Shown here: positions 2,384 to 58,308 of the stretch, piece after piece
How the letters are laid out: each line of letters starts with the position of its first letter
How positions within the stretch are numbered: position 1 is the stretch's first letter
NCBI GenBank assembly: GCA_027317865.1
Contig: DAHVQG010000005.1
Coordinates: 136,209-200,208, forward strand
DNA length: 64,000 nucleotides
Direction: 5' to 3'
Origin: Bdellovibrionales bacterium
Lineage (GTDB): Bacteria; Bdellovibrionota; Bdellovibrionia; Bdellovibrionales; UBA1609
The notes under the pieces: generated by a model
Database searches by the model: none
Told to the model about the DNA's origin: nothing
The model's input: only the letters and a program-made list of their open reading frames with translations
Translations under genes and position numbers: made by a program

Positions 2384-2393
2384 AAAGACATTT

Positions 2394-4244: not shown

Positions 4245-4270
4245 TACAACAGCCAGATCGGCATTTTGGC

Positions 4271-5299: not shown

Positions 5300-5386
5300 G
5301 TTTTTTAAATGATTTTGAAGATCGTCGACGGCGGTGAGAGATGGATACTTTTGAACAAGGCCGTCAACGAATTTTGTATAGTTCAG

Positions 5387-5911: not shown

Positions 5912-6031
5912 ATTATCTCCTTTGTTAATCGGTGATCTTGTCAGGTTTATCTTTATCTGCCACAAGTCTGTGTTGTCAGCAAGAAACGCAAACCTTTACC
6001 AAATTGAAACTGGGCTGATGACGGAGATGAA

Positions 6032-6799
6032 ATGCGAATTGTCACTTGGAACGTGAACGGGGTACGCGCTGTAGCCAAAAAGGGTCTATTAGAATTTATC
6101 CAAAAAACAGATCCCGACATTTTTTGCGTGCAAGAATCCAAAGCTCACCCCGATCAATGCGAAGAAAAACTTATCAAACCGTTAGGGCGCACGAGCTATT
6201 GGTCGTCGGCTTATCGCCCGGGTTATTCGGGCACAATAACCTATCTAAAAGCGGCGCCAGTTTCAGTTCAACAAAGTATCGGGATTAAAAAATTCGATTG
6301 CGAGGGCCGGTTTGTTATTACCGAACAAAACGGATTTTTACTGTACAACGTTTACTTCCCAAACGGCGGGTCCGGCGAAGAGCGTCATCGATTCAAGCAG
6401 GAGTTTTTAATACGCCTTAAAGAGCATTTACTTAAAAAACTTCATTCCGGGCACGAAATCATATTAGTTGGAGATTACAATATCGCGCCCGAAAACATTG
6501 ATGTTTACGATCCGGTTAACCTTGCAAACCAATCTGGTTTTTTACCCGAAGAGCGGCGTTGGTTTGGGGAGTTTCTGGCTGATGGGTTTGTGGATTTATT
6601 TCGCCACTTTCATTCCAACGAAAAATTTCGCTATACGTGGTGGAATTATCTCGACCAAGGTCGTACCGGCAACCGTGGCTGGCGAATCGATCACATTTGT
6701 GTCAGCCGCGGGTTAATGAGTCGAATGAAAAGTTGCGAAATTTTAGATGACGTCACGGGCTCAGACCATTGTCCGGTGACCTGTGAATTAGATGCTTGA
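6032..6799 (+). CDS. xth: Exodeoxyribonuclease III / AP endonuclease
   Basis: WNVNG, CVQESK, NVYFPNG, GDYNIA, YTWW, RIDH and SDHCP motifs. Confidence 0.95.
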   Translation: MRIVTWNVNGVRAVAKKGLLEFIQKTDPDIFCVQESKAHPDQCEEKLIKPLGRTSYWSSAYRPGYSGTITYLKAAPVSVQQSIGIKKFDCEGRFVITEQNGFLLYNVYFPNGGSGEERHRFKQEFLIRLKEHLLKKLHSGHEIILVGDYNIAPENIDVYDPVNLANQSGFLPEERRWFGEFLADGFVDLFRHFHSNEKFRYTWWNYLDQGRTGNRGWRIDHICVSRGLMSRMKSCEILDDVTGSDHCPVTCELDA

Positions 6800-6853
6800 A
6801 AAACCATCCAACATTGGCGTTAGACTGCACCTTTAATGTACCATCTAAAAGCC

Positions 6854-7318
6854 ATGAAACGAGTGCGTTTAGTAGTTGTGATCTTTGCATTTTTTGCGTT
6901 TGCTCAAGCTCGCGCGCTTTGCGTGAAAGTTCAAATGGCGACTTTGCGGGCCGGCCCCAGTTTTCGCGATGCTATTACTTGGCGGGCTGGTTTATACACG
7001 CCACTTGTTGAGCTGGCGTCGCAAGGGGGATGGTTTAAAGTAAAAGATATGGATGGAGATATACAGTGGATCCCCATGGGCGATGTGTCGCAAAACATGG
7101 AGTGTCTCTCTGTTCGCGTTCAATCTGCAATTCTCAGAATGGGACCCAGTCGAAAGGCGAAACTTGCAAATATTGTTGAAGTGGACCGCTATACGCCGTT
7201 TAAGCAAATCGATGAAAATGGCGATTGGTATAAGGTTGAAGCGAGTTGGGGTTCAACCTATTGGATTAATGATAACGCGGTCTGGCTCCCACTTCGCATA
7301 ATGCGAGTTAGTTTTTAA
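6854..7318 (+). CDS. Exported tandem bacterial SH3-domain protein
   Basis: Signal peptide ending ARA; two repeats of LR.GPS....(Y)TP.....(G)WxKV....(W)I. Confidence 0.75.
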   Translation: MKRVRLVVVIFAFFAFAQARALCVKVQMATLRAGPSFRDAITWRAGLYTPLVELASQGGWFKVKDMDGDIQWIPMGDVSQNMECLSVRVQSAILRMGPSRKAKLANIVEVDRYTPFKQIDENGDWYKVEASWGSTYWINDNAVWLPLRIMRVSF

Positions 7319-7433
7319 GATGTTTTAAGTTTTTTGCTTGCTTTACATCATGCGTTGTGTGTAAATAGTTCAGTTCCAAATTGGAACTATTACAAAATTG
7401 GTACCTAGCCATCAGCGACAGGGGGGAAGCGAA

Positions 7434-7805
7434 ATGGCGTTATCAAAATCTCTCGTTGAGAAGTGCAAAAGAGCGCTACTTGAAGCTAAGGCCGACATTC
7501 TGAACAGAGTACGCGACGTTCGTGAGGACTTACACTCTTCAGAGGACGGCAAGGCCGGAGATGAAGGCGATCAAACAGTTCGCGCTCTAGCTGAAAACGA
7601 AGCGCTTTCAAACAATGAACGGCTTCGTGGCCAACTCATGGAAATTGAAATGGCCTTATCGCGCATTGAAAACGGCACCTATGGCATTTGCGAAGAAACC
7701 GAGGAGCCAATTGAACCTGAACGATTATTGGCAATCCCGTGGACGCGTCTCAGCATTGAGGGCGCGGAGATTCGCGAATCAGTCATGAAACGTTACGCGC
7801 GCTAG
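7434..7805 (+). CDS. dksA: DksA/TraR family RNA polymerase-binding factor
   Basis: Coiled coil with DEGD tip; ALSRIENGTYGICEETEEPI..ERL.AIPW; GGGGGG RBS before ATG 7434. Confidence 0.85.
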   Translation: MALSKSLVEKCKRALLEAKADILNRVRDVREDLHSSEDGKAGDEGDQTVRALAENEALSNNERLRGQLMEIEMALSRIENGTYGICEETEEPIEPERLLAIPWTRLSIEGAEIRESVMKRYAR

Positions 7806-8848
7806 ACTTGGTTTGTAAGAGCCGCCCAGCTGCATAGCTGAAATAGCAGGCGAGCTCCAACATTACCATCCCATTCGTCATCATTTGGGCCTGGCGCGAC
7901 TTCGTTTAAATCAAATCCAACTATTTTTCGGCCAGAGCGGCTCACTTTTTCAAGCAGATAAGAGGCTTGATCAAAACTCAAGCCGCCCGGCACGGGTGTC
8001 CCGGTGTGCGGGCAAAATTCCGGTGAAAGGCCGTCGATGTCAAACGATACGTAGACGAGTTTTGGTAGAGAGCTCACAATTTTTTCGCAAATTGATTCCC
8101 AAGGTTCACCCGTGAACAGTTGACGTTTCAGCTCTTGATCAAAGAACGTTTGAATTCTTTCGGTTTGTTGTCGAATAAATTCGGCTTCTTCGCGGCAATA
8201 ATCGCGGATGCCAACTTGCACCAGTTTTTGCGGTGGTTTTTTCAATTGACAGACATTGCGCATAATCGAAGCGTGCGAGAACTGAAAACCTTGGTACGCA
8301 AGCCGCAAATCGGCGTGCGCATCAATATGTAAAACTCCCACTTTTTCGGCTCCGTGCGTCTCGCATATGGCACGGATCGCTCCCAAGGGCGTTGAGTGAT
8401 CGCCGCCAATTACTACGGGCACCTTGTCTTGCTCTAGAATTTCTTTCGTGCGTGTATAAACGGTAGCGACCATTTGAGCGCAACCTGAATTTACTGTTTC
8501 TAAATTATTGATCGCTTCGCGAGAAGTGATCGCGCCATTATCGTCCCATTCTTGAATCACCTGCTGCGCCAGCGGTTTGAGGCGCTCACTCTGTTCATAA
8601 AGCGCTTTCGAGTCAAAGTGGTTATCCCAAAAAAAACCAGCGGTAAAAGCGTCGGCGGCATCATTGCTAAAGCGCGGGTCATAAAGATCAACTTGTGGAC
8701 TTGCGCTATAAATAGCTTCTGGCCCGCGACTTGTGCCACTGCCATACGATGTTGTAACCTCCCATGGCACGGGCATCAGGATAATAAGTGAAGAATCATA
8801 ATCGGCACAAAGGCCAAATATTCCGTCGGATTTTCTTTGCTTCGTCAT
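7802..8848 (-). CDS. speB: Agmatinase (ureohydrolase family)
   Basis: GGDHS, DAHADL, SFDIDGLSP and GTPVPGG motifs. Start trimmed to 8848 because the longer ORF reads through the tandem repeat. Confidence 0.88.
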   Translation of the reverse strand: MTKQRKSDGIFGLCADYDSSLIILMPVPWEVTTSYGSGTSRGPEAIYSASPQVDLYDPRFSNDAADAFTAGFFWDNHFDSKALYEQSERLKPLAQQVIQEWDDNGAITSREAINNLETVNSGCAQMVATVYTRTKEILEQDKVPVVIGGDHSTPLGAIRAICETHGAEKVGVLHIDAHADLRLAYQGFQFSHASIMRNVCQLKKPPQKLVQVGIRDYCREEAEFIRQQTERIQTFFDQELKRQLFTGEPWESICEKIVSSLPKLVYVSFDIDGLSPEFCPHTGTPVPGGLSFDQASYLLEKVSRSGRKIVGFDLNEVAPGPNDDEWDGNVGARLLFQLCSWAALTNQV

Positions 8849-8885
8849 GGCCAGAGGTTTTAATAGAGAGTCATTGAAACTGCAA

Positions 8886-8960
8886 CCCGAAGACGCAAGT
8901 CGTGAGGGAACCCGAAGACGCAAGTCGTGAGGGAGCCCGAAGACGCAAGTCGTGAGGGAG
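8886..8960. repeat. Three tandem copies of a 25-bp hairpin unit CCCGAAGACGCAAGTCGTGAGGGA(A/G)
   Basis: Read directly: 8886-8910, 8911-8935 and 8936-8960, identical except for the last base, with no spacers. Confidence 0.97.
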
Positions 8961-8985
8961 CGATTCAAACTGTTGGGGGAAAGTT

Positions 8986-10695
8986 ATGAGGAATTCGAGG
9001 GGTAAAATGTTGCAATTTAGCGCCGTAATCGCGGGCCTTTTTTGTTTTTTGTTCGTGCCGAATGCATTGGCTGCTCCAAAACACTTACGCGGCCATTTTG
9101 TTGGCCACCACCAAATGCGGCCGTCAGAGGATGTAATTGGCAATCCGAATGCGCCGGTTGGTGGGACTTTTTCTACGACCCTTGATGCCGAGCCGGATTC
9201 GTTAAATCCGTTAAAATCGACAGATGCCTATGGGGCTGCCGTTCAAAGTTATTGTTTCGACACGCTATTGCAACACAACATTCAAAACTATCAATATGAA
9301 CCAAGTTTGGCCGTTCGATGGTCGGTTGCTCCTAACGGGAAATATTATACCTTTTGGCTTCGAAAAGACGCTAAATTTACGGACGGAGAGCCGGTTACGG
9401 CTTCTGACGTCAAATTTAGTTTCGACGCCTTTAACAACCCCAAGCTCGCGGACGCTGTTAACGAAGTATATTTTCAAAATATCGCCAGCGCGAAAGTTCT
9501 TGGACCGTACGAAGTTCGTTTTTATGTTAAGAGAAAATATTTTCTAAACCTCGATACCATCGCGACGATGGATATTTTGCCAAAATCGGTTTACGGCAAC
9601 CCGAAAAAAAATATGTCCAGGCAAATCGTCGGATCCGGTCCGTATAAACTTGCCAAGTTTAATCAAGGCCAAGAAATCGTACTTGTTCGAAACAATAATT
9701 GGTGGGGGTTTAAAACACCGCAAAATCGCGGGTTTTATAAATTTAAAAAAATTATTTTCAGAGTGATAACCAATCAAACCGCTCAACTCGAGGCGCTCGA
9801 ACGCGGGGATCTCAGTTTTCTTGGGCTGACCCCCGAGCAATTTGTGAAAAAGACTTCGGGTTACCCTTGGGGTAAAAAAGTTTTTAAAAGGCAGGTTGAA
9901 AATTCAATACCACACACGGAAGGTTTTATCGGGCTCAATTTTGCATATCCTTTATTTAAGGACGTGCGTGTGCGGCGTGCCTTGTCGCTTCTTTTGAATC
10001 GCAAGCTTATGATCCAAAAGTTTTATTTTAACAAATATTCGGCCGCGACAGGGCCGTGGTATAGCAAGAGCCCTGACGCCGACCCTCGTGCGAAGCCTTT
10101 TGCATATAATCCGTCTTTAGCGCGTAAACTTCTAAAAGAAGCGGGGTGGGCGGATACGAATCACGACGGTGTTCTTGATAAAATGATCAACGGCCATCGG
10201 GTGGATTTTCGTTTTTCAGTTATAAATGGCGGCGGGCCATGGGCGAAAATTTTGACTTTTTATCAGCAAGAACTACGTAAAAACGGAATTCAGCTAATCA
10301 TCAAACAGGTCGACTGGAATTCGCTTGAAACAGATATCAATGAGGGCAAATTTCAAGCGGTTGCTATGGCCTGGGGTGGTGTTGTTTACAATGACCCGAA
10401 GCAAATTTGGGCATCGAGCAGCCACGTCAACGGCGGGTCTAACTTTATCGGATATTCGAATCCGAAGGTTGATCGGTTGATCAATGAGGCTCGTGAGGAT
10501 TTAAATCTGAGAACGCGTGAACCAATGATGCATGAGATTTATTCTCTTATTCGAAACGATTACCCGTACATTTTCTTGTGGAGTCCGAAATACAGTCTCT
10601 ACGCGTATGACAGCAAAATGCATATGCTACGGCCGACTTATAAATACGATATCGGCACTGGGACATGGTGGGCGAACGAAAAAGTGGCTCCGTAA
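8986..10695 (+). CDS. Peptide/nickel ABC transporter substrate-binding protein (family 5, OppA/DppA-like)
   Basis: Signal peptide; LA..W.V..NGK.YTF.LR...KF.DG.PVTA.DVKFS family signature; GSGPYK; D.RVRRALS. Confidence 0.92.
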   Translation: MRNSRGKMLQFSAVIAGLFCFLFVPNALAAPKHLRGHFVGHHQMRPSEDVIGNPNAPVGGTFSTTLDAEPDSLNPLKSTDAYGAAVQSYCFDTLLQHNIQNYQYEPSLAVRWSVAPNGKYYTFWLRKDAKFTDGEPVTASDVKFSFDAFNNPKLADAVNEVYFQNIASAKVLGPYEVRFYVKRKYFLNLDTIATMDILPKSVYGNPKKNMSRQIVGSGPYKLAKFNQGQEIVLVRNNNWWGFKTPQNRGFYKFKKIIFRVITNQTAQLEALERGDLSFLGLTPEQFVKKTSGYPWGKKVFKRQVENSIPHTEGFIGLNFAYPLFKDVRVRRALSLLLNRKLMIQKFYFNKYSAATGPWYSKSPDADPRAKPFAYNPSLARKLLKEAGWADTNHDGVLDKMINGHRVDFRFSVINGGGPWAKILTFYQQELRKNGIQLIIKQVDWNSLETDINEGKFQAVAMAWGGVVYNDPKQIWASSSHVNGGSNFIGYSNPKVDRLINEAREDLNLRTREPMMHEIYSLIRNDYPYIFLWSPKYSLYAYDSKMHMLRPTYKYDIGTGTWWANEKVAP

Positions 10696-10705
10696 GGTTT
10701 GTTTT

Positions 10706-11764
10706 ATGTGGAAATATATTGTTCGAAGACTTCTGATTATGATCCCGACGCTGTTCGGGATCTGTCTTTTTTCGTTTGTCATTATTAATATGGCTCCGGG
10801 TGGTCCGATTGAACAGCGGATCGAGCAACTTCGATTCGCTGGGGCGGCCGGCGGTTTTGCGGGGCGCGGTGGTAGTGAGGCGCTCGCCAACAGCCAGTCC
10901 GGAATTCCACAGAACGTGATTAATGCGCTAAAAAAACAGTACGGTTTTGATAAACCGTTACCGGTCCGTTTTTGGATTTGGCTCAAAGATGTTTGCACTC
11001 TAAATTTTGGCAATAGCTTTAGTTATGACGAGCCTGTCACTCAGCTCATACTAAGCAAAATGCCGGTGTCGTTACAGTTCGGAATTGCCTCACTTATTCT
11101 TACATACCTCGTGTGTATTCCGCTTGGAGTGATGAAGGCGGTGCGCGATGGTACGCCTTTTGATTCCGTATCGAGTTTTATTTTGTTTCTTCTCTATTCA
11201 ATCCCGCCGCTCATGCTTGGAATTTTGCTTATGGTTTATTTTGCCGGTGGTTCGTATTTTCATTGGTTCCCGGCCATAGGCACTATTTCTGATAATTACG
11301 CGTCACTTACGTTTTGGGGCAAAGTGTGGGACCGAGTTCATCACTTTGTATTGCCGCTCATTTGTTACATGGTTAACAGTTTTACCGCCCTCACGTTTTT
11401 GATGAAAAACTCGCTTCTTGACGAGATTCGACTTGAATATGTGCGCACGGCTCGCGCCAAAGGTTTGAGCGAAAAAATTGTCGTGTATAAACATGCATTG
11501 CGCAACGCCTTGATTCCGATCGTCACAGGGATGGGCGGATTTTTGGGAATATTCTTAGCGGGTTCTATTATCATCGAACAGATTTTTTCACTCGATGGTA
11601 TCGGTCTTTTAGGTTACAACTCGGCACTCAGCCGCGACTACAACGTTCTAATGGCGCTTATTTTTATTTCAGCCGTATTAACGCTGTTTGGCCGACTTAT
11701 CAGTGATTTGCTTTATGTTGTTGTCGACCCGCGCATTCACTTCGACGGGCGAGACGATGGTTAA
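10706..11764 (+). CDS. Peptide ABC transporter permease (OppB/YejB-like)
   Basis: YIVRRLL..IPTL, YGFDKP, EYVRTARAKGL EAA loop, HALRNALIP, DPRI. Confidence 0.92.
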   Translation: MWKYIVRRLLIMIPTLFGICLFSFVIINMAPGGPIEQRIEQLRFAGAAGGFAGRGGSEALANSQSGIPQNVINALKKQYGFDKPLPVRFWIWLKDVCTLNFGNSFSYDEPVTQLILSKMPVSLQFGIASLILTYLVCIPLGVMKAVRDGTPFDSVSSFILFLLYSIPPLMLGILLMVYFAGGSYFHWFPAIGTISDNYASLTFWGKVWDRVHHFVLPLICYMVNSFTALTFLMKNSLLDEIRLEYVRTARAKGLSEKIVVYKHALRNALIPIVTGMGGFLGIFLAGSIIIEQIFSLDGIGLLGYNSALSRDYNVLMALIFISAVLTLFGRLISDLLYVVVDPRIHFDGRDDG

Positions 11765-11791
11765 CGGTATGACAATAGTTGAAGGACATCG

Positions 11792-12814
11792 ATGATCGAG
11801 CGCTGGGTACAAAATCCGCTGCTTTTAAAACGCATTCGCCGCTTTAAGAAAATGAAGCGGGCGGTTGTCGCGTCTTGGATTTTTGCTTTTATGCTCCTTT
11901 TGAGCCTGACGGCCAATTTGTGGGCAAATTCAAAACCGATTGTAATGGATTTTCACGGCAAGATTTATTGGCCCGTTTTTAAATCCTATTACCCCACAGT
12001 ATTTGGCGAGAATAACAGGCTCATTACCAATTATCGCAAATTAAAACTTGGCAAAGGTGACTGGGCCATTTGGCCACCGGTTCGGTGGAACCCGTATGAA
12101 AGCAACTTGTCTGTTGCGAATTATCCATCCCCACCATCAAAGCAAAATTGGTTTGGAACAGATTCAAGCGGCCGCGACGTTCTATCACGTCTTATTTATG
12201 GATTTCGCTACAGTATTTCTTACGCACTTCTCGTATGGATCGCAACTTATGTTTTGGGGACAATTGCCGGTGCGATCATGGGATATTGGGGCGGGCCAAT
12301 TGATTTGTGGGGCCAGCGTGTGGTTGAGGTTTTTGAATCGATGCCGGGGCTACTACTGCTCATCACATTAATTTCGATTTTCAGCGCGACCCTGCCTCTG
12401 TTGATTGTATTTACAACCATTTTCGGTTGGATGTCGATTTCGCTTTATATGCGCGCTGAGTTTTTACGTCTTCGCAATCGCGAGTTTGTTGAAAGCGCGC
12501 GCGCGCTCGGCGCCTCGCGCTGGCGAGTGATTTTTGGACACATTTTGCCAAATGCTTTGAGCCCAATTTTCACCTTCAGTTCGTTTTCTATCGCGAGTTC
12601 CATAGCTTCATTAGCCGCTTTGGATTATTTGGGATTTGGTCTTCCGCCGCCAACTCCGAGTTGGGGCGAGCTTTTAAATGAAGCTCAAAAGAACTTTACT
12701 ATTGCCTGGTGGCTCGCGGTTTTTCCTTCGCTTGCGTTGTTTATTACGCTAGTTGTTCTGAATTTAATTGGTGAAGGAGTGCGTGAAGCATTCGATCCGC
12801 GCAAAGTGAGTTAG
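11792..12814 (+). CDS. Peptide ABC transporter permease (OppC/YejE-like)
   Basis: WFGTD..GRDVLSRLIYG, EFVESARALGA, HILPN, PSWG, AFDPR. Confidence 0.92.
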   Translation: MIERWVQNPLLLKRIRRFKKMKRAVVASWIFAFMLLLSLTANLWANSKPIVMDFHGKIYWPVFKSYYPTVFGENNRLITNYRKLKLGKGDWAIWPPVRWNPYESNLSVANYPSPPSKQNWFGTDSSGRDVLSRLIYGFRYSISYALLVWIATYVLGTIAGAIMGYWGGPIDLWGQRVVEVFESMPGLLLLITLISIFSATLPLLIVFTTIFGWMSISLYMRAEFLRLRNREFVESARALGASRWRVIFGHILPNALSPIFTFSSFSIASSIASLAALDYLGFGLPPPTPSWGELLNEAQKNFTIAWWLAVFPSLALFITLVVLNLIGEGVREAFDPRKVS

Positions 12815-12861
12815 TCTAGGCTGACGTAGCGTCAAGGTCGCAAAAAACTGCAAATCAAAAT

Positions 12862-14796
12862 TTAATCTTCGAGGTATGTATAACCAGCAAGGCCTTCTTC
12901 GTAATGTTTCATGAGAAGCCGTGCCTCGGTATGACTGAGAGAACCCGATAAAATTGATTGTTCGGTTGCCTTGCGCACAAGTTCAACAAGTTCAGACCGG
13001 CCGTAGTCGAGGTAACTCAAAACTTCAGTAACCGTGTCACCGTAAAGAACGTGGTCAACCGTGTAAGTGCCGTTTTCGTTGATCGTAATATGAACGGTAT
13101 CTGTGTCGCCAAATAGATTGTGAAGATCGCCCAATATTTCTTGATAAGCTCCGGCAAGAAACGCTCCCAAATAATAGGGTTGACCGGGGATTAGATCGTG
13201 AACCTCGATATAGCCTTGTTCGCTGCCCGCGTCGGTGTCGATAAAATGTTCAAGTTTGCCGTCTGAATCGCAAGTCAGATCGGCAATGGTCGCGCGACGG
13301 TCAGGTCGTTCTTCTAATCGATGAATTGGCATTACCGGAAAAACTTGATTAACAGCCCATGAATCGGGCAGAGACTGAAACACAGAAAAATTACAAAAAT
13401 ACGTATCAGAGAGTTCTCTTTGTAAATTCCAATAAATGTCTTCGGCGTCGGCTCCCGCGTCTTTCGCAATTTTGGTCATCTTCGTTGAAATCGCCCAGTA
13501 TAAATCTTCGGCTTTTGCGCGTTGTTCGAGACTGAGGCCGCCAAACGAAAAGAGTTGCAAGGTGTCGTTTTTCTTCTCAATGAGATCGTTATAAAACTCG
13601 TTGATATTTTTGTGATTCACATTTTCATAAATGTAGAGAAGGTCTTTGACGAGCAAAGAATCTTTTTTATCGATCGTAAACGGTAACGAATGTTTTTGTA
13701 CTTCGTTCATGCCGAGCACGTCAAAAATCAAAATTGAACTGTGAGCCACGAGCGCACGACCGGATTCTGAAATGATATTGGGATGGGGTACGTTGCGTTC
13801 ATCACAAATCGCTTGCAAAATTGACACGACGTCGTTGGCGTATTCCTGTTCACTGTAATTGGTCGAACTGTCTGTTTTTCCGGTACCATCGTAATCAACA
13901 CCAAGACCGCCGCCGACATCGATATATTTGGGGGATGCGCCGAGGGTAAATAGTTCGGTAAAAAATCGAGCCGCTTCTTTAATAGATGCCTTAATCGCTT
14001 GAATCGAAGGCACCTGCGAACCGATGTGAAAGTGCAAAAGCTCGAGACAGTCGAGCATGTTTTCATTTTTTAAAATGTCGATCGCGTGCACAATTTCAGA
14101 TGGAGTGAGCCCAAACTTCGATCGAGCTCCTGAAGACTCGACCCACTTGCCCGAACCTTGCGTATTAAGTTTGGCACGAAATCCGATCTTGGGTTTAATA
14201 TTCAATTTTTTTGATGAAGCGATGATGATCGAAAGTTCGGCCAAACGATCAACAACGATAAACGTGCTACGCCCCAATTTTTGCGACAAAAGCGCCGTTT
14301 CAATATACTCGACGTCTTTAAAACCGTTGCAGATAATGTGCGCATGCGGGGTATCCATAAACGCGAGCGCAATCAAAAGTTCGGGTTTACTGCCGCACTC
14401 AAGTCCGAGACTATTTTCTTTACCGAAATCGACAATTTCTTCAAGAAGGTGGCGTTGCTGATTGACTTTAATCGGATAAACGCCCGTGTAGGTACCTTGA
14501 AAACCATTCTCTCGAATTGAGTTCTGAAAACACTGCGAGATAAGAGCCACACGGGTCTGAACTATGTTGGGAATTCGAACTAAAATCGGCGGGCGGACAC
14601 CACGATCAACAAGATCTTGAACTAGGCGATGCAGATCAAGTCCTGGTTTGTCTTTAAATGCCGTCACTTCGACATTGCCGGAGGAGTTTATGCGAAAAAA
14701 CCCTGAACCCCAACTGTTGATGCCGTAAAGCTCCGCACTTTTTTCAACCGACCAGCTCATATTTGGCTCGTGGCCCGTCTCCATTTCGAAGTTCAC
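12862..14796 (-). CDS. speA: Biosynthetic arginine decarboxylase
   Basis: YPIKVNQ PLP lysine, HFHIGSQ, DVGGGLG, ESGRA, TCDSDG, GAYQEILGDLHNLFG. Exact start uncertain (14796, 14784 or 14760). Confidence 0.95.
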   Translation of the reverse strand: MNFEMETGHEPNMSWSVEKSAELYGINSWGSGFFRINSSGNVEVTAFKDKPGLDLHRLVQDLVDRGVRPPILVRIPNIVQTRVALISQCFQNSIRENGFQGTYTGVYPIKVNQQRHLLEEIVDFGKENSLGLECGSKPELLIALAFMDTPHAHIICNGFKDVEYIETALLSQKLGRSTFIVVDRLAELSIIIASSKKLNIKPKIGFRAKLNTQGSGKWVESSGARSKFGLTPSEIVHAIDILKNENMLDCLELLHFHIGSQVPSIQAIKASIKEAARFFTELFTLGASPKYIDVGGGLGVDYDGTGKTDSSTNYSEQEYANDVVSILQAICDERNVPHPNIISESGRALVAHSSILIFDVLGMNEVQKHSLPFTIDKKDSLLVKDLLYIYENVNHKNINEFYNDLIEKKNDTLQLFSFGGLSLEQRAKAEDLYWAISTKMTKIAKDAGADAEDIYWNLQRELSDTYFCNFSVFQSLPDSWAVNQVFPVMPIHRLEERPDRRATIADLTCDSDGKLEHFIDTDAGSEQGYIEVHDLIPGQPYYLGAFLAGAYQEILGDLHNLFGDTDTVHITINENGTYTVDHVLYGDTVTEVLSYLDYGRSELVELVRKATEQSILSGSLSHTEARLLMKHYEEGLAGYTYLED

Positions 14797-14802
14797 TTTA
14801 GT

Positions 14803-17187
14803 TCACTTCACAATCAAATTCAAAATTTTGCCAGGTTTATAAATGACCTTCGTTAATGCCATACTTCCTATGGCATTCGCAACTGTATTTATCGATTTTG
14901 CCAACTTTATCGCTTCTTCTTCGGTTGTAGTGGCGCTCACTCGAATGCTCCCGCGGGCTTTGCCGTTCACTTGCACGCCCATCTCTATTGTATCGTCGAT
15001 CGTTAGAGCCTCATCGTAGCTCGGCCAGGGCGCCAGAGAAACCAAACCTTCGCCTCCTAACCGATTCCAAATCTCTTCTGCTATGTGTGGTGCAAATGGG
15101 GCCATGAGCTGCGACAGCGTTCTAAGCATGGCTCGGGGGCGGACGTCAGCTTTGTAAATATCGTTCGTTAAAATCATCATAGCCGATACGGCCGTGTTGA
15201 AATTGAGAGATTCGATGTCTTCTCCCACTTTCTTTATTGTTTTGTGGAGCTGCTTGAGGAGTGTTTCAGGTATGTGATCCGCATCGCTGACAACAATTTT
15301 GTCATTTTCGTCGAAGCACAATCGCCAGACGCGATCAAGAAAACGGCGCACCCCCTCGATGCCTTTTGTATCCCATGGTTTATCTTTATCAAACGGGCCG
15401 AGAAACGAAATGTACATGCGGCAGGCGTCGGCGCCGTAAGCGTTGCGGACGTCATCGGGATTGACGACGTTGCCTCGCGACTTGGACATGCGTTGGCCGT
15501 CCGGCCCCATGACAACGCCTTGGTGAACGAGCTTTTGGAATGGCTCATCCGTCGAAACTAGGCCGCAATCGTATAAAACCTTATGCCAAAATCGAGAATA
15601 CAGCAGGTGGCCAACGGTGTGTTCGGCGCCGCCGAGATAGAGATCAACCGGCATCCAATATTTTTGCGCTTCAAACGAAAACGGCGCCGTTTTATTTTTC
15701 GGATCTGTATATCTCAAAAAATACCAGCTTGAGCCGGCTGATCCGGGCATTGTGTCGGTATCGCGTTTAGCGCCGCTGGGGTGGTTGACAAAGTTCGGCA
15801 CCCGCGCAAGCGGAGGTTCACCTTTTTCTGTTGGTTGGTAATCAGCGACTTCGGGTAGTGTGAGCGGCAATTCTTCAAATGGCAATGCCCGTGTCGAGCC
15901 GTCGTTTTCGTGGAGAATTGGAATGGGCTCTCCCCAATAGCGTTGTCGGCTAAAAAGCCAATCGCGAAGTTTATATTGAATTTTTCGCTCGCCGAGTTTG
16001 CGTTTTTCAACTTCTTCAATTGCGCGCGAAATCGCGGCCGTTTTAGTTAGCCCGTTTAAAAAATCGGAATTTACCGCAACGCCGTCGCCTTCAAATGGGA
16101 GGGCATCTCCTCCCTCTACAACTTTGACAATTGGTAAACTGAATTTAGTGGCAAACTCGAAATCACGCGCGTCATGTGCGGGTACCGCCATTATGGCTCC
16201 GGTACCGTAATCCATGAGGACGTAATCGGCTATCCAGACGGGGATCTGAGTCTTAGTAAACGGATTCATTGCATAGGAGCCCGTGAATACTCCCGTTTTT
16301 TCGTTAGCGACTTTTCGGTCCACTTCGCTTTTTTGCTTGGTGCGTTCACAATAAGAGCGCACGGCGCTTTTTTGATCCGCAGTGGTGAGTTTTGTAACAA
16401 GTGGATGCTCAGGCGCTAAAACCATAAAAGTCGCGCCATAAATAGTGTCAGGTCGGGTCGTGAAAATTTCGATGGAACCGGCTGGCGATTCAAACCGTAC
16501 AAGTGCCCCTTCGCTTTTGCCAATCCAGTTGCGTTGCCCTTCTTTGGTGGCTTCAGGCCAATCAACGGTATCAAGACCGCTAAGTAAGCGCTCCGCATAC
16601 TCGGTGATTTTCAACATCCACTGGCGCATATTCACGCGCACGACCGGGTGGCCCCCGCGCTCGCTTTTGCCGTCGACGACTTCTTCATTGGCCAAAACCG
16701 TGCGAAGTTCGGGGCACCAGTTTACGGGCGCTTCTTTTTGATAAGCAAGTCCGCGTTCATAGAGTTTTAAAAAAATAAACTGTGTCCATTTATAAAATTC
16801 CGGCTCGCATGTTGAAACTTCACGATTCCAATCGAAACTATACCCGAACGACTGCAGTTGCCGCCGAAAGTTGGCGATGGCCTTATTGGTGGTAGTAGCG
16901 GGATGAATGCCAGTCTGAATCGCATACTGTTCAGCCGGAAGTCCAAAAGCATCGTAGCCCATGGGGTGAAGTACATTAAATCCACGTGCACGTTTATAAC
17001 GAGCTACAATGTCTGTAGGCGTATACGAAGCAAGGTGACCGACGTGAAGGCCGGCTCCTGATGGATATGGGAACATATCCAGCGCGTAGAACTTCGGGCG
17101 TTGAGGGTCCAGGTGCGCTGCAAAACTTTGTTGATCAGCCCATACCTTTTGCCATTTGCTTTCAATTTCTAAGTGTCGAAAAGCCAT
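14803..17187 (-). CDS. leuS: Leucine--tRNA ligase
   Basis: MFPYPSGAGLHVGH (HIGH motif), FTTRPDT editing domain, RMSKS (KMSKS motif), DWLFSRQRYWGEP. Confidence 0.98.
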   Translation of the reverse strand: MAFRHLEIESKWQKVWADQQSFAAHLDPQRPKFYALDMFPYPSGAGLHVGHLASYTPTDIVARYKRARGFNVLHPMGYDAFGLPAEQYAIQTGIHPATTTNKAIANFRRQLQSFGYSFDWNREVSTCEPEFYKWTQFIFLKLYERGLAYQKEAPVNWCPELRTVLANEEVVDGKSERGGHPVVRVNMRQWMLKITEYAERLLSGLDTVDWPEATKEGQRNWIGKSEGALVRFESPAGSIEIFTTRPDTIYGATFMVLAPEHPLVTKLTTADQKSAVRSYCERTKQKSEVDRKVANEKTGVFTGSYAMNPFTKTQIPVWIADYVLMDYGTGAIMAVPAHDARDFEFATKFSLPIVKVVEGGDALPFEGDGVAVNSDFLNGLTKTAAISRAIEEVEKRKLGERKIQYKLRDWLFSRQRYWGEPIPILHENDGSTRALPFEELPLTLPEVADYQPTEKGEPPLARVPNFVNHPSGAKRDTDTMPGSAGSSWYFLRYTDPKNKTAPFSFEAQKYWMPVDLYLGGAEHTVGHLLYSRFWHKVLYDCGLVSTDEPFQKLVHQGVVMGPDGQRMSKSRGNVVNPDDVRNAYGADACRMYISFLGPFDKDKPWDTKGIEGVRRFLDRVWRLCFDENDKIVVSDADHIPETLLKQLHKTIKKVGEDIESLNFNTAVSAMMILTNDIYKADVRPRAMLRTLSQLMAPFAPHIAEEIWNRLGGEGLVSLAPWPSYDEALTIDDTIEMGVQVNGKARGSIRVSATTTEEEAIKLAKSINTVANAIGSMALTKVIYKPGKILNLIVK

Positions 17188-17207
17188 GTCTCCGTTATTC
17201 TAAGAGT

Positions 17208-18203
17208 ATGTCTTCAAAGTCGCAAAACGAAAAAAGAAAAATTTTAGCGGTCGACGACGACTCTGAAAGCCTTAAGATCATCAGTCAAGCCTTGCTTTGG
17301 GAGGGTTATCAGATCGAAACGGCGACTTCCGGCCGTGAAGCGCTCGACAAAATCGCCAATTGGGCGCCAAACCTGGTTCTACTTGACGTGAATATGCCCG
17401 ATTTAGACGGCCTCGATACGCTAAAACTGTTACGAAAAAGCGCCGATTACGTGACGACGATTTTCGTTTCTGCACAGTCCGAATCAGAAGACATCATTCG
17501 CGGGCTTGATGCGGGCGCGGACGATTATATATGTAAGCCGTTTAACCCGGCGGAACTTTTGGCGCGCATACGCTGCCACCTTCGCATCAAAGACATTCGC
17601 GATGAATTGAATCGTGCCAACTCGAAGCTCAAAGAACTTGTTGATACAGACGACCTCACGGGTCTTTTTAATATGCGTTCTCTTTATCAGAAACTCGATT
17701 TTGAGATTAACCGTGCAGCTCGCTATGACCGAATGGTCTCAGCCATCATGCTCGATATGGATCATTTCAAACTGGTTAACGACGGCAATGACCATCTTTT
17801 TGGCAGTTTTGTGTTGTCACAAATAGGCCAGATTATTCGCGACAATATTCGAAATGTCGATTTTGGAGCGCGCTACGGCGGCGACGAATTTCTCGTGATT
17901 TTGACAGAGACGAGTCTTGAGGGGACACGGGTTTTTTGCGAGCGTCTGCGACATCTTATTGAATCTCATATCTTTCAAAACGAACAACATCATCAGCAAA
18001 TGACCGCCAGTTTTGGTTTTGCCGTCGCCGGACACGAAAATAGAGGTATCGACGCGCGTACACTTGTGCGTTATGCTGACCGCGCTTTGTACCGTGCTAA
18101 AGAAAGCGGCCGCAATTGCGTCGTGGGACATGAAACTGACAACGATAATTTCGCTCAAAAGCCTCAGGTTTATTTTCGCGCGACCAAACGCCGATCGGGG
18201 TAG
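17208..18203 (+). CDS. Response-regulator diguanylate cyclase (REC-GGDEF)
   Basis: REC domain (AVDDD, LLDVNMP, KPF); D.LTGL.N; intact RYGGDEF with RNVD I-site; AKESGRN. Confidence 0.93.
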   Translation: MSSKSQNEKRKILAVDDDSESLKIISQALLWEGYQIETATSGREALDKIANWAPNLVLLDVNMPDLDGLDTLKLLRKSADYVTTIFVSAQSESEDIIRGLDAGADDYICKPFNPAELLARIRCHLRIKDIRDELNRANSKLKELVDTDDLTGLFNMRSLYQKLDFEINRAARYDRMVSAIMLDMDHFKLVNDGNDHLFGSFVLSQIGQIIRDNIRNVDFGARYGGDEFLVILTETSLEGTRVFCERLRHLIESHIFQNEQHHQQMTASFGFAVAGHENRGIDARTLVRYADRALYRAKESGRNCVVGHETDNDNFAQKPQVYFRATKRRSG

Positions 18204-18209
18204 ACCCCA

Positions 18210-19214
18210 ATGACCGATAACTCCGCGCTTTCGAATCGCACCTCAAGAATTCGCTCCATTGCCGCGTATGCCTCATTGCTGATTAGCATTGTTGTTTTAT
18301 TCTTGAAAATTTGGGCCTTTCATAAAACCGGGTCTCAGGCCATTTACTCCGATGCGGTCGAGAGTATTGTGAATATTATTACGGCCATCGTTGCCATTGG
18401 CGTTATTGTTTACGCATCAAAGCCGGTGGATAAGGATCATCCCTACGGTCACGGCAAAATCGAATATGTTTCGGCGGCATTTGAAGGTGGGCTAATTTCA
18501 TTTGCCGCAATTCTCGTTATTTTTGATGCGGTCAAGGCGCAATTTCATCACGAACAGCTCAGCCAACTTTCGGCGGGTCTTTGGCTTCTCGTTGCTTGCG
18601 CACTCATTAACTGGGGCGCCGGTTATTTTCTAAAATTTATGGGCAAAAAACATGCCTCGCCGGCTCTCGAGTCGTCAGGAGTTCATCTTCTTACTGATTT
18701 TGGCACCACAGTTGGCGCCCTTGTCGGCGTTGCCCTTGTCAAATCGACTGGATTAAATTGGATTGACCGTGCGGTTGCGGTATTGCTCGGGTTATGGATG
18801 GGTTCAGTTGGGTTAAAATTGGTTCGACAGTCGGCTTCGGGTCTACTTGATGCCGAAGATCTCAAGCTCTTAGAGCGCCTTGCCGTACTATTCCAAAAAT
18901 TTGCATCGAATGGAATCATTCAAATTCATCACGCGCGCATCATTCGATCGGGGTGGTATCATCATATAGATGCCCATGTTGTTGTTCCTGAATTTTGGAG
19001 CATCAACGAAGCCCACGCGCGTCTTGAGCAATTTGAGGCGTCGGTATTTGAAGCTTATGGTTATAGAGGAGAGGCCAATTTTCATCTCGACCCATGTAAG
19101 CGAAAATACTGCGCCGGTTGCGACTTTCCGGATTGTCCTGTGCGCCGTGAAAAATTTGTCCGTCGCATGCCCGTTGTACTGGAACATTTACGTTCTAAAG
19201 AAGAACCGGTATAG
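18210..19214 (+). CDS. Cation diffusion facilitator (FieF-like) with Cys-rich tail
   Basis: SDAVES, HPYGHGKIE, HLLTD, multiple TM helices, C-terminal H.D.H. Confidence 0.9.
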   Translation: MTDNSALSNRTSRIRSIAAYASLLISIVVLFLKIWAFHKTGSQAIYSDAVESIVNIITAIVAIGVIVYASKPVDKDHPYGHGKIEYVSAAFEGGLISFAAILVIFDAVKAQFHHEQLSQLSAGLWLLVACALINWGAGYFLKFMGKKHASPALESSGVHLLTDFGTTVGALVGVALVKSTGLNWIDRAVAVLLGLWMGSVGLKLVRQSASGLLDAEDLKLLERLAVLFQKFASNGIIQIHHARIIRSGWYHHIDAHVVVPEFWSINEAHARLEQFEASVFEAYGYRGEANFHLDPCKRKYCAGCDFPDCPVRREKFVRRMPVVLEHLRSKEEPV

Positions 19215-55020: not shown

Positions 55021-58000
55021 ATGATCGGTTCAGTTTATAAAAGGTCTTGCTTTAAATTTTTAGTAGTCACTTTATTACTTGGAGTTTTGACTCCATTATT
55101 GGCATATGCGGCGCCACCAAGGCGGATACTAAAAGCGGGACATAAAGCCAACTATATAAAAAAGCAGATTGCGGATATTCGGTTCGGAACGGCAAAAAAA
55201 GAAGCGTTTCAGAAACAGGTTCACGCTGTTGCCAAAACGTTAAACGGCCAAATTCTCGGGCAAGAAAAAACCGTCGCTGTTTTGCAAGACCGATTATTGC
55301 AATATATCGAGTCATTTCCGAACCGAACCGGCGAACCTGTTGCACTTAACTTAATCGGTCTACCTGGAGTTGGCAAAACGGGGATGCTGAAATCGCTTGA
55401 GTCAATCGGTCTACCTCTTGTGATCTTTAATGCCCAAGATTACGCGTCTAATGAAGGTAACCGAAGTTTTGCTAACGATTTATTTCTGTCCCTTATTAAT
55501 CACGGAGCACTTCGAGTAGTGAATGGGAATTGGGTTGTTAACGAGCCGCTTGTTGTTGTCATTGATGAGTTGGATAAAGTGCCGGAAATCGACACGAGCA
55601 AAAACGAAAAAACGCAGACTTTGATCGGCACCATCAACTCAATTCTTTCAGAAGGAGCCTTCAGTGCTAGCGGGATAAACGTAAATGTGTCGAATTTGAT
55701 GCTGATTACGACGATGAATTTTTCGCCAAATGATATCGAGTTATTCACCTCAAAAGTATTGGGCGAAAATAAGAATTTTTACGATTTATCGATCGATGAT
55801 TTTTTGAAGTTCGACCAATGGATTCGGACCCAACCGAGCGCGCGCTATCGCGTTCTATCTAAGATGTTTCGCTCAAATACGGTTAGCCGGTTGGCGCCGA
55901 ACACGGTTATTGTGCAGCCGTTGAGCCGAGCGGTTTACGAACGCATAATTAAATTGGTAGTCGACTCCACGGCACAATCGGCAGAAAAAAAATCCGTACG
56001 CGTGAATTTTGATTCGTCCTTCGTTGATTTTCTGAATACTCATGCGATTTACGCGCCATCAGGGGCGAGAGAAACTATATTTAGAGTTAGGGCTCTTGCG
56101 GAGCAACTCATTAACTTTGGTACCAAAGCCAAGGACCCTCACGGAGACGCAACAGTCGACCGGCCGAGAGATTTAAATATTTCAATAGTTAATAACGTTG
56201 CCCATATTCAGGTAACTCCATTAGTGAACAGGGATGGATTATTAAAGAAACGGGATTCATTTACTATCGAGGCGGCCTACGACCCGGGTGCAAAGCTGTT
56301 TTTAGCGCCCAAAAATTTGGCAATGCAAAAGCCGCGATATCCAAACAAAACGCGGCAACCGAGAGTTACGAAGAAGGATGTGTTAGCCGCGCGATATCCT
56401 CCGACCGCAAATATCAGTAGTGACATATATGACAAGATTAATTCCGTTCTGCTGGGGCAAAAGGATGCTGTCGGACTTGTACTTGATGACATGAAAAAAT
56501 ATTTGAGTCGGCCGGGGCCGGCGACACTTGAGCCATCGGCGCGCATTTTGAGCGGGTTTCCGGGCATTGGTAAAACAGAACTCGTGAAGAATGTAGCCGA
56601 ACAGCTTCAACTGCCGGTTGTTAAGGTTAATCTACAGCAGTTTGCCTCTGATTCGCCCGATACAGTTAAAGATTTTGTGGCGTATTTGAACGAAAACATC
56701 ACGGCGGCACGAATGCAATCCGTTAAATCGGGTCATGCCGGCAAATATATTTTATTGTTAGAAGAACTCGATAAAGTTTTTGAAGTCGACCCGCAGACCG
56801 GTAAGTTTGTTAATCGACCCATTATGGGCGTGATTAAAGATCTTCTGGGCGACGGTCAAATTACGACATCGTCCCGTATTGGCGCGGGCGCGCGTATCGA
56901 CATTCGCGACGCGTTTATTATGGTTACAATGAATTTTTCGGTCGATCGGTTTGGTTTTAAGGCCGACCCGCGATTGACGTCAATTCGCGATGTCATGAGG
57001 GCGTGGCGCAAACTAAGTTTTTCACCAATGGCGCTCAAAGAACTTTTGGGAACAATGTTTTTGCCCGAAACCGTGAGCCGGATGATGTCGCGTTTTACCG
57101 TAATGAAACCTCTTGATCAAAACGACTTTCGCGAACTCATTCGCCGGCAAGTCGAACGTGTGGTTCGATCTCGGTTGCTCGATTCAAACGGCAGAAATGT
57201 CGCTAAAATTGATGTCGAATTAGCGCCGAACTACGAAAAATATCTTGAACAAGAGACGGTTATCCCTTCAGAGGGGGGCCGCTATACTGTCGTTTCGGTG
57301 CAAAATAAAATTGCTTCAGATTTAGAAGCCGCATTACAAAATCTGCCGCGGCGGAAAGAAATCGAGGCGGAGCCGCTAAAGATCATTCTCGATTATGATT
57401 TCGCCACTTCTGAGGTCGCCGTAAAAATGGTTCCGCTTGAAAAAGGCGGGGAGAAACCAGTTGAAGACGTTTTGCGCCGAAGGGTCGCTCTACAATTTCC
57501 ATCGTCGGAGCTAAAAGGAAAAATTCCAGCCCAACGCTTGTGGATCGCCGCTCACGAATTTGGCCATGCCTATATGGGGCTGCGGTTGGGTCTTGCGATT
57601 GAAAATGTGGTCGTTGTTCCACCAACACCTGGAGTTGGGGGTTACGTCAAATTTGCCGCCGGTTCCGGTGCTGAGGGCAATTCGGCACGCAATATGATTT
57701 TTTCAGTCTATTCGGCGCTTGCTTCACGAGCATTCGAACGCATCGTCATGAGCACGAATCCGAGTAACGACACAAGCGTTCTTGATGTGACAAGTGGGCC
57801 GTCCAGCGATATCCGTCAGGCGACCTATCAACTTTACACCGCAATTTACGAACTTGGGTTTGACCCTCAGGGCGGCACTATCGACACCAATTTTAATTTA
57901 GGCGTTGGACGTTATGCGAGTATCGACAACATGCCCGGTAAATTGGTTGAGAATTTGGGTCAGTTAATGCGGGCCATGGAGAACTATATGGTTTCTGATT

Positions 58001-58308
58001 TTCTAAATCTGCATCCAAAAGAGTGGTATGTTGAAAAAATATTGGCGCTCGCGCGAAAAGGGGAAATGAACGGCGAAGAGTTTACCCGGTTAGTGGGTTT
58101 TGAGCCGATTAACGGTAATACCGGTCATTTGACGGATCATATTCGGCGTTTTTTTGGCGAATCGGCGGTGGAGTCGGCGGATAGTCCGACGCAACAAAGA
58201 GTTCTCGAAGCGCAAAACGCGTACATTTCCGAGTTTATTAAATTACTTCGCGAAAAATTGCATTCTAAGACGGAATCAGACTGTGCAAATATTTTGCAGG
58301 GTGCGTAA
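55021..58308 (+). CDS. Signal-peptide-bearing tandem AAA+ ATPase fused to an FtsH/M41-type zinc protease domain
   Basis: Signal ending AYA-A; Walker A GLPGVGKT and GFPGIGKT; Walker B IDELDK and LEELDK; HEFGH...ASRAFE...SGPSSDI. Confidence 0.85.
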   Translation: MIGSVYKRSCFKFLVVTLLLGVLTPLLAYAAPPRRILKAGHKANYIKKQIADIRFGTAKKEAFQKQVHAVAKTLNGQILGQEKTVAVLQDRLLQYIESFPNRTGEPVALNLIGLPGVGKTGMLKSLESIGLPLVIFNAQDYASNEGNRSFANDLFLSLINHGALRVVNGNWVVNEPLVVVIDELDKVPEIDTSKNEKTQTLIGTINSILSEGAFSASGINVNVSNLMLITTMNFSPNDIELFTSKVLGENKNFYDLSIDDFLKFDQWIRTQPSARYRVLSKMFRSNTVSRLAPNTVIVQPLSRAVYERIIKLVVDSTAQSAEKKSVRVNFDSSFVDFLNTHAIYAPSGARETIFRVRALAEQLINFGTKAKDPHGDATVDRPRDLNISIVNNVAHIQVTPLVNRDGLLKKRDSFTIEAAYDPGAKLFLAPKNLAMQKPRYPNKTRQPRVTKKDVLAARYPPTANISSDIYDKINSVLLGQKDAVGLVLDDMKKYLSRPGPATLEPSARILSGFPGIGKTELVKNVAEQLQLPVVKVNLQQFASDSPDTVKDFVAYLNENITAARMQSVKSGHAGKYILLLEELDKVFEVDPQTGKFVNRPIMGVIKDLLGDGQITTSSRIGAGARIDIRDAFIMVTMNFSVDRFGFKADPRLTSIRDVMRAWRKLSFSPMALKELLGTMFLPETVSRMMSRFTVMKPLDQNDFRELIRRQVERVVRSRLLDSNGRNVAKIDVELAPNYEKYLEQETVIPSEGGRYTVVSVQNKIASDLEAALQNLPRRKEIEAEPLKIILDYDFATSEVAVKMVPLEKGGEKPVEDVLRRRVALQFPSSELKGKIPAQRLWIAAHEFGHAYMGLRLGLAIENVVVVPPTPGVGGYVKFAAGSGAEGNSARNMIFSVYSALASRAFERIVMSTNPSNDTSVLDVTSGPSSDIRQATYQLYTAIYELGFDPQGGTIDTNFNLGVGRYASIDNMPGKLVENLGQLMRAMENYMVSDFLNLHPKEWYVEKILALARKGEMNGEEFTRLVGFEPINGNTGHLTDHIRRFFGESAVESADSPTQQRVLEAQNAYISEFIKLLREKLHSKTESDCANILQGA

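Follow-up and report, generated by a model that had tools for sequence, protein, structure and literature searches.

A predicted exported AAA+ protease combining two ClpB-D2-like modules with an FtsH-type M41 domain in a Bdellovibrionales genome

INTRODUCTION

ATP-dependent proteolysis is held to be limited to compartments that contain ATP, namely the cytoplasm, the organelle matrix and the endoplasmic reticulum (ER). FtsH, in which the ATPase and the M41 protease share one chain, spans the membrane twice and has its body, with a single classical-clade AAA module, in the cytoplasm. Torsins are weak ATPases without pore-loop aromatics; they consist of one module that lacks the arginine finger and have no protease. 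To our knowledge, no other AAA+ proteins are found behind a signal sequence. A passage of PMC7175109 names torsins as the only AAA+ proteins of the ER and nuclear envelope. Here we describe P0001, a protein encoded in a 64,000-nucleotide stretch of DNA (the window; contig DAHVQG010000005.1, positions 136,209 to 200,208) from a Bdellovibrionales bacterium. In P0001 a predicted signal peptide is followed by two ClpB-D2/ClpX-like AAA+ modules, duplicates of each other, and by an M41 protease of FtsH type; this domain order is upheld by sequence profiles and fold. We propose, with a probability of roughly 0.45, that it is a self-contained AAA+ protease which is exported via a cleavable Sec signal peptide and works on prey contents with prey ATP. 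New here are the lone C-terminal Cys of this protein, the occurrence of the same Cys tag on other signal-peptide proteins, two AAA_2-M41 paralogues and the missing aromatic pore loop.

RESULTS

Domain architecture and fold

The initial annotation of the locus had proposed the domain order of a signal peptide, two Clp-D2-type AAA+ modules and M41, and this order is upheld by sequence profiles and fold matches; the motifs on which it was based are present as well. The N-terminus is basic at K7, R8 and K12, uncharged from F13 to P33, and reads AYA at residues 28-30. The Walker A motifs are G113-T120 and G512-T519. The two ATPase modules are homologous, with 26% identity over 302 residues (E 3e-22), and the protease motifs HEFGH (H845-H849), LASRAFE and TSGPSSDIRQAT follow them. 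The Walker B pair is D182-E183 in the first module and E581-E582 in the second. When both modules are aligned to the source genome's own ClpB D2, sensor-1 is N233 and N638, the arginine finger is R290 and R687, and sensor-2 is R350 and R754. The single hydrophobic segment of the protein is N-terminal, with no further hydrophobic span.

The Pfam AAA model matches P0001 twice (E 8.6e-17). The match to AAA_2 (PF07724) is marginal, passing the gathering cut-off of 27 with 28.4 bits, and ClpB_D2-small matches weakly at residues 301-351. Across 44 family members AAA is found in 44, Peptidase_M41 in 34 (best E 5.7e-14), AAA_2 in 27 and ClpB_D2-small in 22, the counts for AAA_2 and Peptidase_M41 being those at E<=0.001. 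For P0001 NCBIfam ranks highest the D2 portions of ClpA, ClpB and ClpV and the protease portion of FtsH, with every score far under its equivalog cut-off. A profile of the family searched against the PDB finds ClpB/Hsp104 D2 (E 1e-15) and the FtsH protease (E 3e-12).

The AlphaFold2 model of full-length P0001, made with 60 homologues, has a mean predicted local distance difference test score (pLDDT) of 88.2. Its best Foldseek matches are two-ring ClpA/ClpC/ClpB chains with E ~1e-17 over ~780 columns. In VIA-align, module 1 (residues 54-401) fits ClpX 6wrf_C with Z 21.8 and a root-mean-square deviation (rmsd) of 3.5 for 308 aligned residues. Module 2 (462-817) fits human CLPB 7xbk_E with Z 22.2 (rmsd 3.2, 295 aligned) and ClpB D2 4fcv_A with Z 21.0. 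For each module, comparison with CLPB, ClpB D2 and ClpX gives Z 21-22 and rmsd 3.2-3.7 over 289-309 aligned residues. The protease domain, modelled as residues 821-1095, has a pLDDT of 87.2 and a predicted TM score (pTM) of 0.86. It gives 36 Foldseek matches at E<=0.001, and among the matches listed all are FtsH, AFG3L2, YME1 or FtsHi; the top match is 3kds_F (E 1.4e-5, TM 0.53 over 205 columns).

Catalytic residues

Residue conservation was scored on 44 aligned full-length family members. In the ATPase modules K119, K518, E183, E581, E582, N233, N638, R290, R687 and R754 are invariant (44/44), and R350, the sensor-2 of module 1, is kept in at least 90% of members. In the protease domain H845, E846, H849, E906, R907 and D930 are invariant (44/44), and D930 is probably the third zinc ligand, as suggested by motif likeness. 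The retention of the ATPase and zinc-site residues points to an active enzyme throughout the family. The initial annotation had read the E-E Walker B as a peculiarity of module 2 that might alter hydrolysis. The alignment corrects this: E-E is the family consensus in both modules, with E at position 182 in 26 of the 44 members, and E-E is on this basis a family trait rather than the decay of one module. Conservation is strong in the loop that follows Walker B: the module 2 loop has an aromatic residue at 587 in 39 members, R599 in all 44 and P600 in 43, and may be a substrate-contacting element.

N-terminal signal peptide

Signal peptides were scored with a heuristic that asks for an n-region of net positive charge, eight consecutive residues of high hydropathy free of charge, and a small-x-small site at residues 14-42. 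It passes 47 of 60 homologues vs only one of 60 when applied from residue 60 on. Seven of the 13 failing homologues begin with an obviously hydrophobic segment, and the other six look truncated or mis-started. Homologues without a signal peptide, or starting downstream of it, had been named beforehand as a pattern that would speak against export; that pattern did not occur, with 47 of 60 passing and 7 more being hydrophobic. Two other N-terminus criteria were given up. The first passed 50/60 homologues and also 885 of the 1992 open reading frames (ORFs) of the genome, and a stricter regular expression passed 38/60 vs 375/1992.

The N-terminal segments vary in sequence across the family and are conserved in character. 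The n-regions average a net charge of +1.66 with hardly any acidic residues, and the hydrophobic core has a median length of 14 residues, within the 7-15 or so usual for a Sec (SPase I) signal peptide. Acidic residues often come after the small-x-small site. By these heuristics the family N-terminus is predicted to be a cleaved Sec signal, unlike an N-out anchor, and the predicted export of P0001 is well supported. Low Cys content was weighed as a possible sign of export: P0001 ranks 13th of 141 long ORFs for it, and the genome's own ClpB-like and ClpA-like ORFs are equally Cys-poor.

C-terminal cysteine tail

Of the 60 homologues, 52 have a Cys among their last 25 residues, vs 0 of 60 in each of seven upstream control windows. 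Outside the first 35 and last 25 residues the homologues have a median of 0 and a mean of 0.23 Cys. The tail Cys usually occurs as C-x-x-hydrophobic-hydrophobic after a basic stretch. The eight homologues without it are one divergent protein and a sub-group of seven (P0022, P0024, P0028, P0029, P0050, P0053 and P0055) in which an Ala/Pro-rich spacer of 140-215 residues lies between the signal peptide and module 1. This long-spacer sub-group, which has no C-terminal Cys, includes members labelled Elusimicrobia.

The tail is found on other proteins of the source organism as well. We scanned the genome for signal-peptide-like ORFs without further membrane spans, using control windows shifted 30-120 residues upstream. 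The pattern C-x-x-[LIV]-[LI] occurs in the last 18 residues of 20/587 such ORFs vs 0-2/587 in the displaced windows. On ORFs without a signal peptide it is not enriched (11/1405 vs 4-13 in controls). Because the enrichment is confined to signal-peptide-like ORFs, the tail appears to mark the exported proteins of this organism in general, and on P0001 it would be a second, independent export-associated mark. Its role may possibly be in sorting, covalent attachment, lipidation or disulfide pairing. No description of it was found in the full-text literature, and no NCBIfam model matches it. A function of C1088 as a zinc-blocking cysteine switch was considered and rejected, because enrichment of this tail extends to unrelated ORFs with a signal peptide.

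Thirteen of the 20 further tagged ORFs have no Pfam family (Table 1). One tagged protein, L051, has 204 residues, begins with a hydrophobic stretch and is matched by models for cytidine/dCMP deaminase and MafB19-like deaminase. By these matches it is a toxin-like enzyme within the tagged set.

Paralogues and their genomic company

To our first reading no characterised protein had the architecture of P0001. This stands for the full-text literature, where searches found none described, and the architecture is not unique in the source genome, which has two more. A genome scan for P-loop ORFs with a signal peptide yielded both paralogues, P0205 and P0206. P0205 has 1163 residues with two AAA_2 stretches (E 1.3e-32) and an M41 match of 62.5 bits, above the cut-off. 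P0206 has 1450 residues, three AAA modules, an M41 match of 49.3 bits and a lipobox-like N-terminus. Both end in a basic stretch and then a Cys tail. P0001 and P0205 have no significant similarity by BLASTP (E 0.39). Relatives of P0205 are present in 40 of 401 sampled genomes of the phylum and 30 of 203 genera. All ten P0205-type loci that were fetched, one of them the source genome's own, encode 1116-1453 residues with a near-terminal Cys, most with signal-like N-termini.

P0206 is located in a cluster of ORFs on one strand whose neighbours bear signal peptides, several of them with the Cys tail. The cluster includes a protein of the EEP (endonuclease/exonuclease/phosphatase) family, two SLOG/LOG-domain proteins, four proteins without a Pfam family and a ribose-phosphate diphosphokinase-like (PRPP-synthetase-like) protein. 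The latter belongs to an ATP-using family (TIGR01251, 152 bits vs a cut-off of 113). Adjoining the cluster is a signal-peptide-bearing ParB-like nuclease. From these assignments the source organism appears to export several enzymes whose substrates are normally cytoplasmic, namely nucleic acids and nucleotides including ATP. Export of nucleotide and nucleic-acid enzymes would be understandable if their targets lay within another cell.

Family size and distribution

A word-indexed search finds 68 relatives of P0001 with 611-1273 residues and 32-62% identity, nearly all metagenomic. The few that are labelled are named 'AAA family ATPase', in metagenome-assembled genomes (MAGs) labelled Bdellovibrionales or Elusimicrobia, or carry the automatic name 'ClpA'. 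A profile search of 1.84 billion representatives gives 109 proteins at E<=1e-30, fragments included, so the family is small. In the phylum of one Elusimicrobia-labelled member it occurs in 3 of 301 sampled genomes, and a contig scan confirmed at least four loci. Confinement to predators, which had been raised as a test of the predation hypothesis, is not seen by name, as some members are in MAGs labelled Elusimicrobia. No relative was found on viral contigs. A search for shorter, split or single-module forms gave six matches of 376-536 residues, all fragment-like.

Several look-alikes lie around the family. The ESM Atlas has clusters with M41 and D2-small, some labelled viral or Bdellovibrionota, which serve as leads. 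Single-module relatives of 650-750 residues (P0124, P0123, P0132, P0147, P0156, P0142, P0145, P0150 and P0166) have one D2-like AAA and an M41-like domain. Some of these have a signal peptide and a Cys tail (P0132), others have long disordered N-termini without a signal peptide, and HExxH is lost in three (P0147, P0145 and P0142). Two metagenomic proteins of ~1020 residues, P0165 and P0178, have a signal-peptide-like N-terminus and three consecutive ClpB-D2-like modules with the aromatic pore loop kept and no protease. With these two, exported-looking Clp-D2 ATPases exist beyond the P0001 family.

Gene structure and neighbourhood

A G-run resembling a Shine-Dalgarno site lies directly upstream of the P0001 ATG. 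A shorter start would break the domain, because the next in-frame Met is M122, within the first Walker A. The guanine-cytosine content of the gene is 0.44-0.49 vs 0.474 for the genome, and the P0001 family has one copy in the source genome. A promoter and terminator scan around P0001 gave matches no more frequent than in shuffled sequence. A look for expression covered seven listed runs, none of them holding RNA. Neighbours in the 64-kb window are a hybrid histidine kinase, an OmpR-type regulator, an acyl-CoA ligase-like enzyme and a Ser/Thr kinase. Elsewhere in the window is a 228-residue signal-peptide protein without a Pfam family, which is Tyr/Pro/Gly-rich with tandem G-A-Y-P-Y-like repeats. 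Coordinates are summarized in Table 1.

Table 1. Features of P0001, its paralogues and tagged ORFs (positions without a locus or contig label are those of the window)
Feature	Position	Strand	Details
Whole gene P0001	55021..58308	+	1095 codons plus stop, ATG start; sole long frame at the locus
Signal peptide, residues 1-30	55021..55110	+	Basic n-region, hydrophobic core, AYA before predicted cleavage site
AAA+ module 1, residues ~45-372	55153..56136	+	Walker A 55357-55380, Walker B 55552-55578, N233, R290, R350, ClpB-D2-small-like lid
Linker 1, beta-rich (model strands 383-421), then low-confidence stretch	56137..56355	+	From model secondary structure and pLDDT
AAA+ module 2, residues ~446-775	56356..57345	+	Walker A 56554-56577, Walker B E581-E582 at 56749-56775, N638, R687, R754; conserved post-Walker-B loop F587/R599/P600
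Linker 2, beta-rich (strands 786-821)	57346..57510	+	From model
M41-type zinc protease domain	57511..58170	+	HEFGH 57553-57567, E906-R907, TSGPSSDIRQAT motif with D930 57790-57825
C-terminal tail with the only Cys of mature P0001	58261..58305	+	C1088 in C-x-x-I-L context
Signal-peptide protein, 228 residues	49914..50600	-	
P0205 (L028)	G000:C22:92359-95850	-	
P0206 (L029)	G000:C37:76460-80812	-	
P0206 cluster (L030)	G000:C37:70000-89000	-	ORFs 1794-18984
Tagged ORF	L030:2872-4380	-	
Tagged ORF	L030:4377-6443	-	
Tagged ORF	L030:10786-12402	-	
Tagged ORF	L030:14156-15598	-	
Tagged ORF	L030:15595-17199	-	
Tagged ORF, deaminase-like (L051)	G000:C11:250929-251543	-	204 residues
Further tagged ORFs	L042-L059		

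DISCUSSION

Proposed mode of action

We suggest that P0001 leaves the cytoplasm of its producer through Sec and would lose about 30 residues on cleavage. By analogy with Clp and FtsH, the exported protein would form a ring. In such a ring the two stacked ClpB-D2/ClpX-like tiers may bind and hydrolyse ATP and feed proteins to a C-terminal M41 chamber. The site of action would be inside or next to the attacked prey cell, as part of a prey-directed secretome fuelled by prey ATP. The C-terminal Cys tail may be the lineage-wide mark of this secretome and act as a sorting, attachment or modification signal. A role as a predation effector that uses prey ATP is plausible but unproven. Its support is circumstantial and comes from the cluster of signal-peptide nucleotide enzymes around P0206 and from the nucleases that Bdellovibrio secretes into the bdelloplast. 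In the part of PMC7925074 concerned with them, B. bacteriovorus is reported to secrete nucleases bearing signal peptides into the bdelloplast, the site where prey cytoplasm is degraded. It is possible, if on balance doubtful, that the scheme is general and that Bdellovibrionota-like predators export Cys-tagged ATP-dependent unfoldase-proteases via Sec, run them on victim ATP and dismantle folded prey proteins with them.

Several points weigh against the proposal. The bacterial periplasm has no ATP pool, and for this reason P0001 would most likely act where the contents of the prey cytoplasm, ATP included, are available. We know of no extracytoplasmic ATP-dependent protease in bacteria. The source organism is known from metagenome DNA only, its closest named homologues point to Bdellovibrionota, and its predatory lifestyle is putative. 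Within its own phylum the P0001 family is patchy, with 13 of 401 sampled genomes and 10 of 203 genera, and the Elusimicrobia-labelled members are without the Cys tail and are not known as predators. Across 15 family loci no conserved neighbour is found, the only recurring one being a generic receiver domain in three. The signal-peptide heuristic is permissive, as it also passes 652 of the 1992 genome ORFs, membrane proteins included. The Peptidase_M41 model (PF01434) matches P0001 at residues 837-956 with E 1e-5 and 25.9 bits, under the gathering cut-off of 29.9. The aromatic pore loop 1 of the organism's own ClpB D2 has no counterpart in either module, where the aligned stretch is variable and rich in insertions and deletions. 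Classical threading is therefore not assured. Of the term 'unfoldase-protease' used in the initial annotation, the AAA+ and M41 parts hold, and the unfoldase part is weaker, with the canonical aromatic pore loop missing in both modules.

Alternative explanations

Other readings of P0001 differ in where the protein works and in what its ATPase modules do. An exported P0001 may serve the envelope of its producer, in the periplasm or at the surface, on own or environmental substrates and with ATP that is trace extracellular or of unknown source. The export signals would be the same as for a protein sent to prey, and both the family members in MAGs labelled Elusimicrobia, which are not known predators, and the lack of a conserved prey-related neighbour in the 15 loci would suit such a role. 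We consider it unlikely: ATP sites invariant in both modules (44/44) make little sense in a compartment without ATP, and the neighbours of one paralogue are exported nucleases and nucleotide enzymes that have cytoplasmic substrates. It is rather improbable that the exported modules are no longer motors and provide a nucleotide-independent scaffold for assembly or substrate binding, somewhat like torsins. The Walker A Lys, catalytic Glu, sensor-1 and arginine finger are invariant in both modules in all 44 members, with sensor-2 invariant in module 2 and kept in at least 90% of members in module 1; the arginine finger is itself a difference from torsins. ClpB D2 is at the top of the PDB profile search, and no torsin is among the best 60 of 142 matches. 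These observations are to be set against the absence of a canonical aromatic pore loop from both modules, a Walker B consensus of E-E rather than D-E, and matches of the Torsin Pfam model to 22 of the 44 members, all of which favour a scaffold.

The hydrophobic N-terminus might also be an uncleaved N-out/C-in anchor, which would make P0001 a membrane-tethered cytoplasmic protease and a single-span analogue of FtsH. This topology removes the ATP problem, and it agrees with a conserved basic Y-[RK]-[RK] after the hydrophobic segment and a mean net charge of +0.92 over the next 15 residues. The n-regions, however, are more basic (+1.66) and nearly free of acidic residues, the hydrophobic cores are short (median 14) with whole segments down to 19 residues, and small-x-small sites followed by acidic residues are common. 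In addition, P0001 carries the C-terminal tag that is enriched only on signal-peptide-like ORFs, and some members have the 140-215-residue Ala/Pro-rich spacer behind the segment. With these features an anchor is very improbable.

Significance

The AAA+ protease family, and a wider superfamily in the same phylum, keep intact ATPase sites together with two putative export marks. If export is correct, either the rule that confines ATP-dependent proteolysis to ATP-containing compartments is broken, or predators send machines that need energy into their prey and fuel them with the ATP found there. Should the general predator scheme hold, this would be the first case in bacteria of ATP-dependent proteolysis outside the cytoplasm. 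The Cys tag would then define a new route for sorting or attaching the proteins of a prey-directed secretome, nucleotide-consuming enzymes among them. A lone Cys in an otherwise Cys-free, presumably exported protein gives a handle on this possible new C-terminal sorting signal, and the family offers an AAA+ motor without a canonical pore loop for mechanistic study.

Comparison with known systems

Searches of the full-text literature found no description of a signal-peptide-bearing AAA+ protease. The main texts of two Bdellovibrio papers, PMC11656739 and PMC12546842, have zero mentions of AAA, FtsH, M41 or ClpB, and their supplementary tables could list P0205-type relatives. Within the source genome, P0205 and P0206 share the frame of P0001, with a signal peptide, two or three ClpB-D2-like modules, M41 and a basic tail with one Cys. 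They differ from it in being nearer to canonical ClpB/ClpV D2 (E 1e-55 to 1e-76) and in keeping a G-Y-[IV]-x pore loop in the last module. A group of cytoplasmic fusions of ~1125-1175 residues (P0169, P0188, P0189 and P0197) also has a D2-type AAA and M41 in one chain. Unlike P0001, these have no signal peptide, their second ATPase is of classical FtsH type, and a receiver-like domain, as read from the sequence, lies between.

Torsins had been put forward as a loose precedent. The likeness is only a general D2 likeness: they, too, have a D2-like AAA+ module behind a signal sequence and no pore-loop aromatics, and Torsin (PF06309) matches half of the family as noted above. P0001 itself has no Torsin match at E<=1, and its R290 and R687 are invariant.

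P0001 resembles FtsH, m-AAA and i-AAA proteases in having AAA+ and M41 in one chain, with conservation of HExxH, the E-R that follows and the D of the third-ligand motif. In contrast to FtsH, it has two ClpB-D2/ClpX-like modules and a signal peptide, and it scores 23.5 bits vs 600 on the NCBIfam model FtsH_fam (TIGR01241). With the Hsp100 proteins ClpA, ClpB and ClpC it shares two stacked AAA+ tiers, the sensor-2 G-A-R and the D2-small lid, and these give the best whole-model Foldseek and VIA-align matches. In contrast to Hsp100, P0001 has two D2-type tiers that are duplicates of each other, lacks the Clp N-domain and middle domain as well as the aromatic pore loop, has its protease fused in place of a separate ClpP, and bears a signal peptide. 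Its scores on the Clp equivalogs are 44.1 bits vs 993 for ClpA and 33.2 vs 1232 for ClpB, and it is far under the cut-off for ClpV. As the equivalog cut-offs are missed by such wide margins, P0001 belongs to neither the FtsH nor the Hsp100 family. By analogy, it may work as a two-tier Hsp100 unfoldase joined to the protease of FtsH would.

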